From assembly GCA_963713925.1 (NCBI GenBank), contig OY970212.1, positions 864,001 through 928,000 on the forward strand: a stretch of DNA of 64,000 nucleotides, given 5' to 3'. A program made the translations under genes and the position numbers. Shown here in pieces: positions 1,690 to 51,014 of the stretch. The notes under the pieces were generated by a model. It saw nothing but the letters and a program-made list of their open reading frames with translations. It was not told where the DNA came from and did not search any database. How positions within the stretch are numbered: the first letter of the stretch is position 1; the number at the start of each line of letters is the position of its first letter. This stretch comes from an uncultured bacterium. GTDB lineage: Bacteria; Babelota; Babeliae; Babelales; Vermiphilaceae.

Positions 1690-1940
1690 ACCTGAAAGGT
1701 GCTCGTCCACCCTTCAGGGCAACGGACGCTTAAGACCCCAGCCTACGCTTATTCGGGCCTTCCGGCTCGACAAGCTACGGTGGGCAAGCAAGGTCTTAAG
1801 AATCCCTCGAGGTTCAACTCACTATACCCAGCCTACGTTTACCCGGGCCTTCCGGCTCGGCAAACTACGGCGGGCAGGCTACAATTTTTGACAAAATTGT
1901 TTCATTAGTTCGGTGAACCTCATCAGACTTTTTTATTTTG
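1688..1940 (-). ncRNA. Candidate structured ncRNA, copy B, interrupted by two palindromic repeat insertions
   Basis: Reverse complement closely matches 48601-48738 after removing inserts at ~1738-1789 and ~1828-1879; strand inferred. Confidence 0.45.
1738..1879. repeat. Two copies of R3 palindromic repeat (CCAGCCTACG...CCTTCCGGCTCG...CTACGG.GGGCA)
   Basis: Near-identical ~52 bp units at ~1738-1789 and ~1828-1879; related units at ~9235, ~17248, ~46156. Confidence 0.85.
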
Positions 1941-47623: not shown

Positions 47624-48193
47624 TTAAAACGGTAAATCGTCTTGGAATGGTGGTTGATCTTTGAATTCAACCTCGGAGCCCATATCAGACGTTTCTTTCT
47701 TTTTACGAGCTGGTTTCGGCTCATCTAAGTCTGACTTAGTAGCAAAGCCGGAAGTTTTTTTGTTTTTAATGTTTTGGATTTGATTAAGCAAATCTTTTTC
47801 CATTTCTGATTGCACAGGCTCCGCGCTTGGCTCTTCTGCACCCATTTCAACTGATGCGCCAGCACCCGAAGACAAGAAGACCACACGGTCAGCAACTATG
47901 GTATGCTTGCTGTGTTTTTGGCCATTTGCTTCCCAGCTGTTAAATTTCAAGCGGCCTTCAATAAGCGCCGGACGACCTTTTTGCAAATATTGGCGGCAGC
48001 TTTCAGCTTGCGCTCCCCACACTTCAACATCAACAAAGCATACTTCTTGCACCATTGATCCTGATTGTTTGTTTTTAAATTGACGATTTGATGCAATGCC
48101 CAAAGTGCAAACTGCTTGTCCTGACGGAAGTTGTTTATAATCCGGGTCACGGGTTAAATTTCCGGCAATAATAACGCGATTAAAACTTGCCAT
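47624..48193 (-). CDS. ssb: Single-stranded DNA-binding protein
   Basis: NRVIIAGNLTRDP, YLQKG and C-terminal DDLPF; true start ATG 48193. Confidence 0.97.
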   Translation of the reverse strand: MASFNRVIIAGNLTRDPDYKQLPSGQAVCTLGIASNRQFKNKQSGSMVQEVCFVDVEVWGAQAESCRQYLQKGRPALIEGRLKFNSWEANGQKHSKHTIVADRVVFLSSGAGASVEMGAEEPSAEPVQSEMEKDLLNQIQNIKNKKTSGFATKSDLDEPKPARKKKETSDMGSEVEFKDQPPFQDDLPF

Positions 48194-48294
48194 AAGAAGA
48201 ACCTTTTGAAATGAGTAATTTGTAATAAATTTTTTGAATATATATTCGCTATCGTAACAAAAAAGCAGATCCATTTCTACTATGACACACAAAG

Positions 48295-48461
48295 AACTCC
48301 GCTCCCCGCGTTGGGGCAAGAGTAGTTCTGCCACCACTCTTGCATCTCGGGCACTTAAGACCAAGGTCTTAAGAAACCCTTTGCCCGTTTCAAACATCGG
48401 GATCACGCAATTTTTCAAATTGCTTAGACCCTCGGCGAAACTACCGGACTTTTTTATTTTA
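48295..48461 (-). ncRNA. Candidate structured ncRNA, divergent copy C
   Basis: Same ordered motifs and helices as 48601-48760 with compensatory changes; strand inferred. Confidence 0.45.
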
Positions 48462-48600
48462 CCGTAGTTATTCGTATTGAATTGTTGCTCGATAAAACAA
48501 GAAATGATGGAGTGGAGGAGTGGGTGAAGCCAGCCGGGCCGGCTGTAGAGGCCAAATTTAACGTTTCAAGCCAATTAGCAATGCATTAAAATCGACACGA

Positions 48601-48760
48601 TAAAATAGAAAAGTCTGATGAGGTTCACCGAACCAATGTAGCGATTTATCGCGTATGGTGAGTTGAACCTCAAGGAATTTTTAAAACCTTGGTTTTAAAC
48701 GCCCGTTGCCCTGAAGGGTTGGCGAGAACCCTTCAGGCGCTGGTCCCCGCGGAGGGGACA
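48601..48760 (+). ncRNA. Candidate structured ncRNA, copy A
   Basis: TAAAAT box, then AAGTCTGATGAGGTTCA...TGAACCTCA, TTAAAACCTTGGTTTTAA and CCTGAAGGG..CCCTTCAGG hairpins; two other copies in the window. Confidence 0.5.
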
Positions 48761-48781
48761 AAATGTTTCTGGGGGGTGGGC

Positions 48782-49135
48782 TTAAAACTTTTTTAATATA
48801 CTGTTAAGTTCTTCGATCTTGCGCTCGATGGCGCGCACTGCCTCAACCATCTTTTGTTTACCTGATAGCTTTTTTTCTTTTGCAAACAACCCATTACTTG
48901 TTCCCTCAACCACATCCATCACATCTTCAAGTAATTTTTTCTGTAATCGACCAAGTTGCTCTTGAAGCTCTGCAATCTGCCGCAGCAGATCGCCCACACA
49001 GTAAACAAAATCTTCCTTAACGCCGAGTGCTGACGTTGCTGCGGGTTTTGCATTCGAAGATTTAGGAACCACGATAAATGATTCTTCTGCGCGAGATACC
49101 TCAAAAAAAAGCAGGCTTATAAACAAACTTTTCAT
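48782..49135 (-). CDS. Secreted coiled-coil hypothetical protein
   Basis: Start MKSLFISLL overlaps the upstream stop (ATGA). Confidence 0.6.
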   Translation of the reverse strand: MKSLFISLLFFEVSRAEESFIVVPKSSNAKPAATSALGVKEDFVYCVGDLLRQIAELQEQLGRLQKKLLEDVMDVVEGTSNGLFAKEKKLSGKQKMVEAVRAIERKIEELNSILKKF

Positions 49136-49698
49136 GCAACTGACCTTCCTTGCAGCAAAAGAATACCGATGCGCAAATATTGTAACAACGATATCAACAC
49201 CAATGCCAGCACGCAAAAAAGGCTCGCGTAATATGTTTTAATAGGAACGAAGTGGAAGAAATAACACACGCACAACCACACAACCAACAATGACTGTACA
49301 ACTGTTGTTAGTTTGCTTGTCATGGTTGGCTTTACATACATAACTCCGCGGAAATAATAGAGTAGCCCCGTCCCACCCACGACAATGATTTCACGCGCAG
49401 CAATACATGCGACAAACCACCAGGGAATATGCAAACGATCTGCCGGCAAGGCAGCTAATGTTGTCAGCGAAGCTAACAAAAGAATTTTATCTGCAATAGG
49501 ATCTAACGATGCACCAAGCACCGTTTGTTCATTAAGGAGGCGCGCTAAAAAGCCGTCAAGCATATCGCTGAGCGCCGCGACCGAAAACAATATTCCTGCG
49601 ACAACCCACGATTGATTAATCAAGCTGAGCACGATAAATGGTGTCAACATGATACGGCTTAGCGTGATCCATGTCGCAATTGTTATTTTAAAAGACAT
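49132..49698 (-). CDS. CDP-alcohol phosphatidyltransferase (PgsA/CRD1-like)
   Basis: ITLSRI and SDMLDGFLAR...GASLDPIADK signature. Confidence 0.92.
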   Translation of the reverse strand: MSFKITIATWITLSRIMLTPFIVLSLINQSWVVAGILFSVAALSDMLDGFLARLLNEQTVLGASLDPIADKILLLASLTTLAALPADRLHIPWWFVACIAAREIIVVGGTGLLYYFRGVMYVKPTMTSKLTTVVQSLLVVWLCVCYFFHFVPIKTYYASLFCVLALVLISLLQYLRIGILLLQGRSVA

Positions 49699-49774
49699 AT
49701 AATTTACTCGGAAAAAGAGGGGAAACCTTATTGGGCCAGTATACCTAAAGAACAATAAATATTAAACACAGAAA

Positions 49775-50842
49775 TTATATTCGAGATTCTGTTATAATAC
49801 CGGCACCCAAGCAACGATTTTCGTCATAAAAAACAGCAAATTGTCCGGGGGCTATTCCCTGATCGTCTTCTTGCAATGAAACCGAGTATTGCCCATTTTC
49901 TTGGGGGATAATTTGGCAGCCATATATTTTTGGTCCATGGCGCAATTTCACTCGAAGATCATTTTTTTCAGGAGCCACGCCGTCAAACCAATTCACCGAT
50001 TCAACTAAAAAGCTATTTCTCTTTTTATCTTCGGTGTAATAGGCCGAAGATACCGAAACGCGATTCGCTTTCGGGTCTTTATTGACCACATACCATGGTC
50101 CGCCTGAGAGCCCCAAGCCTTGCCGCTGTCCGATGGTGTGAAACCAAAAGCCTTGATGGGTGCCCAATTTCTTGCCGGTTTCAAATTCTATGATAGGCCC
50201 CGGGCGTTCACCTAAATAATGTTTTAAAAAATCATTAAATTTCAGTTTTCCCAAAAAACAAATGCCTTGGCTATCTTTACGATCTTTATTGGGCAAATTG
50301 AATTCACGTGCCAATGCGCGGACTTGCTCTTTTTTCATATTCCCAATGGGAAAAAAGGCCCGATTCAGCTGTTTTTTATTCAGATAACCGAGGAAATAGG
50401 TTTGATCTTTAATCTCGTCAGGGGAACAAAAGAGATGAGCCTGCCCATTGTTATGCTCAATCCAGGCATAATGCCCGGTGGCAATCTTGTCATATGAATC
50501 ATCGATATGATCAACAAAAAGGCCAAATTTGATCTGTTGGTTGCAGAGCATATCCGGGTTGGGGGTCCGTCCCTGTTTTACCTGGTCAACCACAGAGGAA
50601 ACGACCCGCTCATGGTATTCCTTTTGCAGGGAGACCACCTTCAAGGGTACATCAAATTGAGAGCAGACAGCCTCAATAAACGACAAATCTTCTCGCCAGG
50701 GGCAATTATCCCCCAGAAAGCTCAGTTCGTCCTCAAGCCAAATTTTAATGTAAAAAGCGGTCACCTGATGGCCCTGCTGCTTTAAAAGCGCTAAAGCCAC
50801 TGAGCTATCAACCCCGCCGGAAATAAGCATTGCTATTTTCAT
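49775..50842 (-). CDS. mnmA: tRNA 2-thiouridylase
   Basis: SGGVDSS, GRTPNPD, ATGHYA, KDQTYF and DSQGICF. Confidence 0.98.
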   Translation of the reverse strand: MKIAMLISGGVDSSVALALLKQQGHQVTAFYIKIWLEDELSFLGDNCPWREDLSFIEAVCSQFDVPLKVVSLQKEYHERVVSSVVDQVKQGRTPNPDMLCNQQIKFGLFVDHIDDSYDKIATGHYAWIEHNNGQAHLFCSPDEIKDQTYFLGYLNKKQLNRAFFPIGNMKKEQVRALAREFNLPNKDRKDSQGICFLGKLKFNDFLKHYLGERPGPIIEFETGKKLGTHQGFWFHTIGQRQGLGLSGGPWYVVNKDPKANRVSVSSAYYTEDKKRNSFLVESVNWFDGVAPEKNDLRVKLRHGPKIYGCQIIPQENGQYSVSLQEDDQGIAPGQFAVFYDENRCLGAGIITESRI

Positions 50843-51014
50843 AGTGAAAAACCTCATGTTTTACTATAGCAAAAACGAGAAAAAGCGCTATAACAACGCC
50901 TTTATAATACCGCCCCCCCCTCAAATTAGGTTTTTTCTTGCTTTCAGGAAAATCCACCTGATATAATTCAAATAGAAATACTATTAAGTGATTAAAAATT
51001 ATTCAGGAGTCATT

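Follow-up and report, generated by a model that had tools for sequence, protein, structure and literature searches.

The window, that is, the whole stretch of 64,000 nucleotides analysed here, carries three copies of a repeat family that is real, uncatalogued, gene-free and mobile. Its unit of about 150 nt comprises two hairpins, a long variable one and a short one, and two pseudoknots in tandem; it lies between genes, often as divergent pairs, and we consider it somewhat probable that its 3' end works as a triplex pseudoknot of single-stranded DNA, offering a handle to a DNA enzyme acting in trans. The evidence for a DNA-type triplex and the evidence from the loops are new, whereas a doublet layout like that of the TwoAYGGAY elements was already known.

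The three copies had been pointed out in an earlier note made from the letters of the sequence, and they are present with the motifs listed there: copy A (start 48613, forward strand), copy C (start 48449, reverse strand) and copy B (start 1928, reverse strand). Compensatory changes were confirmed both in the near-perfect palindrome described in that note, here called P5, and in its 3' hairpin of varying sequence, here called P6. Each full copy has in addition a further hairpin, P7, and two pseudoknots, which were absent from the note.

Copy A (48601..48759, forward strand) belongs to subtype 1 and comprises an A-rich lead (48601-48612) and a core that opens with the GTC at 48613 and closes with P7. 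The first part of the core to be named is P2-P4 (48620..48671), an irregular long hairpin interrupted by an internal loop of tandem G.A, followed by the P5 hairpin (48680..48699) and by the predicted triplex pseudoknot (48700..48737), in which the 4-nt strand 48700-48703 pairs with the loop 48721-48724 of the 11-bp stem P6 (48710..48737) and the 6-nt linker 48704..48709 is the predicted third strand. The second pseudoknot (48738..48759) closes the copy, bases 48738-48740 pairing with the loop of the terminal hairpin P7 (48743-48759). Judged by eye, the A-rich lead and positions 48672-48679 may also form a weak stem, P1, extending the long hairpin. The partner of copy A, copy C (subtype 2a, 48296..48461, reverse strand), has its P5 at 48354-48373, the pseudoknot strand and third strand at 48344-48353, P6 at 48316-48343 and P7 at about 48299-48311. 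Compared with shuffled sequences, copies A and C gave z-scores of -4.6 to -5.9 when folded as RNA and of -4.2 to -5.3 when their element strand was folded as DNA.

The spacer of the pair (48462..48600) is about 80 bp longer than that of most pairs in the same genome, and resembles the long spacer of the pair at genome position 1,185,603. The extra segment includes a 15-bp perfect palindrome (48531-48545), a possible protein-binding site that is nearly repeated in the 1,185,603 pair. Outside the element, the flanks are host genes on the reverse strand: ssb (47624..48193), downstream of copy C, and a small ORF without Pfam hit (48782..49135), whose stop codon lies 22 bp past copy A and which directly precedes ssb in relatives without the element. 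The single copy B (subtype 1, 1691..1940, reverse strand; P6 at 1691-1718) has no P7, and its lead reads CAAAAT and not TAAAAT. It is longer than A and C because two GTAG-type palindromes of about 52 bp, members of a separate repeat family, have been inserted on the reverse strand, one inside P3 (1827..1878) and the other inside the loop of P5 (1738..1788). Its end lies at the stop codon of a 535-aa ORF that converges on it. Both A and B finish beside the stop codon of such an ORF, in agreement with the earlier statement that they point at gene ends.

Across the entire 1.32-Mb genome, searches with BLAST and nhmmer together with motif parsing yielded 29 copies, of which 27 were parsed, one is 5'-truncated and one bears an insert; the family is thus multicopy, as had been claimed, but far larger than the three copies then counted. 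Twenty copies form ten pairs, all divergent, with starts 68-164 bp apart, and the other nine are single; tandem or convergent pairs within 2 kb were not found in this genome. When the 5' hairpins were sorted by eye, five subtypes emerged (13, 3, 7, 3 and 3 copies), and none of the ten pairs combines two copies of one subtype (p=0.045). The 3' hairpins have been shuffled between the subtypes, and some copies carry additional terminal modules in tandem at their end. In several copies, stems and loops contain small palindromes that belong to other families. Concerning the genomic surroundings, 21 of the 29 copies face a convergent gene end, 8 of them within 10 bp of the stop codon, while 8 of the 29 point into a downstream gene (the start of ssb being corrected). 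Seven of the nine singles are on leading-strand sequence, a number too small to show a replication-strand bias.

The invading palindromes are themselves repetitive in this genome. The GTAG type has 20-30 relatives by BLAST, and at least two other small families are present, of which a TTCGAC and a GGATGAC type gave 48 and 25 motif hits, respectively. These families invade loops and stems of the element and also occur upstream of single copies.

The proposal that this is a new structured family holds. Rfam produced no hit at gathering score in the window, and searches ranked by E-value, on 651 bp and on 20 loci, returned chance hits only. Literature searches of published main texts found no description of the family. 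A model search of Dependentiae genomes, also suggested beforehand, did find homologs, and these covary.

Consensus folding backs P4 to P7 with many compensatory changes. In the first pseudoknot the loop of the 11-bp stem P6 takes as its partner the four bases that immediately follow P5, and 98.9% of the alignment cells concerned are paired in 23 copies from the window's genome and its closest relative, G013. We evaluated this pairing in homologs picked by a model blind to it, leaving out 8 unparsable hits and duplicates and keeping some mis-picked stems as counted. At least four Watson-Crick pairs were present in 43 of 56 distant homologs, as against a permutation mean of 14.6 and a maximum of 23 in 2000 permutations, and in 31 of 36 close homologs, as against a permutation mean of 7.0. 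A count on another alignment (A6) was discarded as circular, since its rows had been chosen by this same pseudoknot. The geometry is nearly fixed: 4 bp, a 6-nt linker, an 11-bp stem and a 6-nt loop. The second pseudoknot joins three bases downstream of P6 to the P7 loop; 92-93% of its cells are paired, and two of the three pairs covary. A pseudoknot on P5 was seen by eye in subtype 1 only.

The linker between the first pseudoknot strand and P6 follows a rule of its own. Its 6 nt form a mirror image of the P6 purine strand, the two being related across a turn of 2 nt: each G is faced by G, and each A by A or T. This rule is obeyed at 166 of 180 positions (5000 permutations gave a mean of 125 and at most 143) and at 141 of 144 when the four core positions are considered; a second set of sequences gave 154 of 185, against 121. 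Both sets hold related sequences, so that the counts of triples, like those of loops given below, are not counts of independent events. P5 follows the mirror rule partially (83 of 135). Opposite A, the linker has T 76 times and A 38 times; this twofold preference for T is consistent with reverse-Hoogsteen T.A-T and A.A-T triples of the antiparallel motif on the element strand and inconsistent with a pyrimidine motif on the complementary one. The linker and P6 are predicted to form a class I intrastrand antiparallel purine-motif triplex in the scheme set out in the available text of PMC4666352. It should be noted that a genome-wide descriptor of triplex hairpins matched terminator-like hairpins for the most part (45 of 62 outside the family), so the mirror by itself is not specific.

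Parallel and antiparallel triplexes are both possible in DNA, and in RNA the parallel type is the only one well established. According to the accessible portion of one paper, purine-motif triple helices are unable to form in RNA (PMC4666352, citing Semerad and Maher 1994), while a review reports, in the part available, evidence both ways on RNA third strands (PMC7583470). The hairpin loops offer a second line of evidence. Among the distinct hairpin loops on the element strand of the 5' domains of 67 copies we counted 20 GNA, 5 GNRA, 6 GNYA and no UNCG loops, compared with 1 GNA, 13 GNRA, 1 GNYA and 4 UNCG in the rRNA of the window's genome, used as a control (Fisher p=2e-5); the other strand of the 5' domains has 2 GNA loops. 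GNA and GNNA loops make very stable mini-hairpins in DNA and much weaker ones in RNA, as stated in the available text of PMC13037366. Taken together, the antiparallel triplex rule and the GNA-type loops suggest folding as single-stranded DNA, which we regard as reasonably probable. G.T pairs also exceed A.C pairs (19 versus 6 and 22 versus 8), so that one strand is the folding strand, although this excess does not separate RNA from DNA.

For this reason the strand-specific G.T excess is equally at home in another explanation, which we hold possible but rather unlikely: that the copies are independently transcribed structured small RNAs, whose 3' pseudoknots protect the 3' end or bind a protein and which have been duplicated as DNA, the mirror pattern then consisting of unusual RNA base triples. 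RNA often contains pseudoknots and tandem G.A loops, five of the loops counted are GNRA, and the related TwoAYGGAY elements are described as RNAs in the accessible text of the preprint discussed below. Against an RNA stand the antiparallel purine-motif rule, loops dominated by GNA and devoid of UNCG, and the tolerance of the copies for insertions. Transcription signals were also searched for. The A-rich lead is conserved in the family, as are upstream blocks whose distance is fixed, and these could be promoters; the earlier note had taken the TAAAAT ahead of the GTC for a -10 box, but TAnnnT is found at -12 in only 6 of 27 copies, and a scan of 48150-48850 detected neither a sigma-70 site nor a terminator. 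Of the two natures offered in that note, a noncoding RNA or a mobile element, the mobile one has been borne out and the RNA has become doubtful, as the triplex and the loop types fit single-stranded DNA better. Intermediate situations can be envisaged: the DNA fold may drive the spread while some copies are also transcribed, and short antiparallel triples inside an RNA pseudoknot are possible.

A full-length model places the family in at least 28 of 151 genomes for the order and at least 31 of 151 for the phylum, which are lower bounds, 18 candidates having been scored per genome. With a 64-position model of the 3' domain, applied to 151 genomes of the phylum each at least 90% complete, the 3' module was detected in 54 genomes, in 1 to at least 35 copies, and was not found in the other 97, a patchiness that speaks against a small RNA. 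Other families have divergent pairs too, their spacers ranging in length from about 20 to about 700 bp; the shortest of these also argue against two independently transcribed units. No function is common to the neighbouring genes (39 and 78 proteins compared), which speaks against a cis-regulatory role; several of these genes encode tRNA synthetases in other genomes and none does in the window's genome. Many copies are located at contig ends, and the repeats seem to break metagenome assemblies of Dependentiae.

Empty orthologous sites testify to mobility. The gap upstream of ssb is filled in the window's genome and, by different copies, in 2 of 27 relatives searched, and in the closest relative, G013, it is short and empty; the orthology of the small ORF upstream of ssb was judged by eye. 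On this comparison of sequences, we conclude that the window locus arose by insertion and that the gap is an insertion hot spot. In two other genomes (loci L117 and L128) the same gap is filled by unrelated REP-like palindromes. Elsewhere, a pair of about 690 bp in the genome G048 corresponds to a gap of 67 bp in its sister genome G030, and this gap contains a terminator-like hairpin. Neither a target duplication nor short exact terminal repeats are visible at this site, the sole filled and empty pair close enough for the check, with flanks 80-88% identical. In the cysS-trxA gap, a pair common to two genomes has its subtypes on opposite sides, which suggests that its middle was inverted.

Two loci of one genus (L030:1150-1760 and L185:1190-1877) have conserved tails of about 55 bp past P7, with a small palindrome, and these tails have been exchanged between the left and right ends of the pair; they may be the true ends of the unit. 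In genome G210 (L157:1100-1300) a remnant of the 3' module provides the last codons and the stop of mnmA; in the window, mnmA adjoins a CDP-alcohol transferase gene (49132-50857) with no insertion.

Outside the genomes of the phylum, phage, plasmid and viral collections contained no true copy, and a single viral pattern match was rejected, as it does not score with the model. Pattern scans of genomes gave 23 hits, of which 10 loci score with model R1 and look like Babeliales copies, the other hits being chance or a tandem hairpin repeat of Clostridiales; a metagenome scan gave 5 hits, 3 true and 2 by chance. Judging from the named records with close homologs, the window's genome belongs to the Dependentiae/Babeliales lineage. 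The tandem repeat, in a Clostridiales record (L074:1362-1602), follows the same grammar of mirror plus hairpin and has a terminal hairpin. It has no long 5' hairpin, and R1 matches nothing in that genome.

Gene-end insertion, shuffled modules and nested REP-like palindromes are also what an ordinary mosaic of MITEs and REPs would show. The pair would then be a single element of double-stranded DNA, mobilized by a transposase and bounded by terminal inverted repeats that are long but imperfect, and its hairpins would be mere by-products of palindromy. We judge this improbable: palindromy alone can yield neither the pairing of a loop with a linker nor the mirror rule, the asymmetry of pairs and loops between strands argues against it, the one filled and empty pair gave no target duplication, and no transposase was found beside the scanned loci except an IS110 that invaded a copy.

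Still less can be said for a divergent and expanded 6S-like decoy of RNA polymerase, raised in the earlier note, in which the long hairpin would be the upstream arm and the stacked pseudoknots the downstream duplex; it is very improbable. The length is similar, the 5' end may resemble that of 6S, and canonical 6S was matched in none of 61 genomes of the order (RF00013), but RF00013 is unmatched in the window's genome even at E<=10, the element has neither a closing stem between its 5' and 3' ends nor a large central bubble, and its presence is patchy and its behaviour mobile. A hammerhead reading of the CUGAUGA motif of subtype 1 was dropped by eye, as the other subtypes are without it. Finally, the two-state switch of the earlier note (a riboregulator or attenuator) is hardly credible, for alternative 5'-3' helices can be drawn in A and C, and the copies pointing into downstream genes would suit it, but the pairing is not a feature of the family, shows no covariation (matched duplex energy -6.55 versus -6.40 kcal/mol permuted, p=0.38, 21 copies), costs +7 kcal/mol when forced in A and C, and would serve functionally unrelated neighbours.

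We return to the single-stranded DNA handle. In the mechanism that we propose, the duplex would open on the lagging-strand template or during repair or recombination, and one strand would fold, the long hairpin coming first, then P5, then the knot made of the 4-bp pseudoknot, the 11-bp stem and 4-5 base triples, and last the second pseudoknot. The knot would be the handle for a host or trans-acting nuclease or recombinase that copies the element. In a divergent pair the two outer ends would each carry a knot, on opposite strands, and whatever lies between the knots would be copied into another gap between genes. The copying would proceed by cut-and-repair or recombination, in which the former spacer can be replaced and the target is not duplicated. 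Exchanges between copies by recombination would account for shuffled modules, for the addition of P7 modules in tandem and for the inverted middle of a pair. The long 5' hairpin would be free cargo, whose head differs between subtypes and lineages.

Candidates for the partner enzyme were searched for in several ways. Reverse transcriptase (PF00078) was not detected in the window's genome, which is 95.75% complete, nor among the neighbours of the element. Y1/RAYT transposases occur in 54 of 151 genomes, 17 of them shared with the element against 19 expected, hence without co-occurrence, and the window's genome has Y1 only as a fragment; DUF559 occurs in 5 of 151 genomes and is absent from this one. 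The 3' module was found at none of 36 Y1, DUF559 and GIY-YIG loci (0 of 31 for Y1). Four small GIY-YIG genes of the window's genome (L133-L136) were rejected as partners, each being bracketed by another small palindrome family; the locus L133 adjoins a tRNA gene end. None of the genes between widely spaced copies (8 regions) fits the role.

The invading IS110 deserves a separate mention. In genome G210, an intact IS110 with a 313-aa transposase lies inside a copy of the element (L140:1653-2887). The transposase is 72% identical to three copies of the window's genome, which are themselves located in another MITE. The upstream guide region of the G210 IS110 contains 9-mers that match the sequence on either side of the insertion site. 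Judging from these matches, the element copy is an IS110 target, a natural case of retargeting between two repeat families, in which the repeats are a landing site for a bridge-RNA IS110.

Among known systems, the closest are the extended TwoAYGGAY elements (RF01731) of Pseudomonadota. As described in the available text of a preprint (bioRxiv 10.64898/2026.09.22.753630), these have an elongated basal stem, extra hairpins and a 3' pseudoknot, a variable copy number and 68% divergent doublets, by a mechanism left unresolved there. Our element shares with them, as far as that text goes, the multicopy and intergenic state, the divergent doublets, the elongated basal stem, the 3' pseudoknot and the terminal hairpin; it differs in having no AYGGAY loops and in the position of P5, which follows the basal stem. 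Inspection by eye of the copies in the window's genome revealed no GMTBT repeat array upstream, another TwoAYGGAY feature. We parsed 28 TwoAYGGAY loci out of 30 fetched, and they have the same 3' order of pairing strand, linker, 11-15-bp stem, loop and terminal hairpin. In 25 of the 28 a pyrimidine linker matches the purine 3' strand, as in a parallel motif (runs of 3-9), and 2 of the 28 have the antiparallel version (runs of 6 and 7), a third being alike after one mismatch. The portion of the preprint text available mentions neither a triplex nor a fold at the DNA level (10.64898/2026.09.22.753630).

The models of the two families hardly reach each other. RF01731 matches 11 of 151 genomes of the Pseudomonadota group and, at E<=0.01, none of 8 genomes that included the carriers G000 (the window's own), G091, G190 and G196. 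Cross-matches are weak, 11-20 bits for R1 and up to 20 bits for R2, and fall at the expected place with E-values of 1e-4 to 0.08 in 90 kb; R2 gave single weak matches in 9 of 151 Pseudomonadota-group genomes, none of which is a TwoAYGGAY carrier. From these comparisons, common descent of the two is likely, and the element is best read as a variant of TwoAYGGAY-like doublets that is without AYGGAY loops and has a DNA-type triplex pseudoknot. We put forward more tentatively, as possible and not as probable, that the element and the TwoAYGGAY 'RNAs' make up one mobile superfamily across phyla, whose working part is a triplex pseudoknot of single-stranded DNA read by a DNA-moving enzyme. Lineages would then swap the apical cargo (AYGGAY hairpins, GNA mini-hairpins or AT-rich stems) and keep the knot, and even the chemistry of the triplex, parallel or antiparallel, would be swapped.

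REPINs or BIMEs with their RAYT, and MITEs, are non-autonomous intergenic repeats with inverted doublets and mosaic modules, probably handled as single-stranded DNA. The core of our element differs from REPIN/RAYT systems in having no GTAG-tagged REP and no link with RAYT, and in its conserved tertiary fold. Closer in chemistry are the BoxC, PIT and TM(ECO) repeats, for which the accessible text of PMC4666352 reports purine-motif intrastrand triplex potential in intergenic positions, partly in tandem inverted pairs, with neighbours unrelated in function and no enzyme known. TM is there a G/C-rich class II motif of about 37 nt (pyrimidines, purines, third strand), whose triplex in E. coli forms in vitro and is unseen in vivo (PMC4666352, same portion). 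Our element is instead of class I, with mixed G, A and T, 4-5 triples, a pseudoknot that locks them and a unit of about 150 nt. The ncRNA arrays of UG27 reverse transcriptases also have units of about 150 nt, with a variable long hairpin, a basal hairpin and a pseudoknot, and are described in the available preprint text as tandem, beside the reverse transcriptase and in prophages (10.64898/2026.09.22.753630); our element occurs as dispersed divergent pairs, with no reverse transcriptase match in the window's genome and no phage or plasmid copy.

Selected tertiary structure in genomic DNA has rarely been shown, and in this family the covariation extends, throughout an entire bacterial order, to a 4-bp pseudoknot, an 11-bp stem and a mirror third strand. 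A covarying triplex knot of this kind offers a sharp and cheap test of whether a family of 'structured RNA' is in fact folded DNA. The finding bears on the nature of the TwoAYGGAY elements, on the reason why such elements occur as divergent doublets and on the role of intrastrand triplex repeats. If the superfamily proposed above is true, it would provide a natural, selected tertiary fold of DNA, and an Rfam family would be recast as a DNA element.
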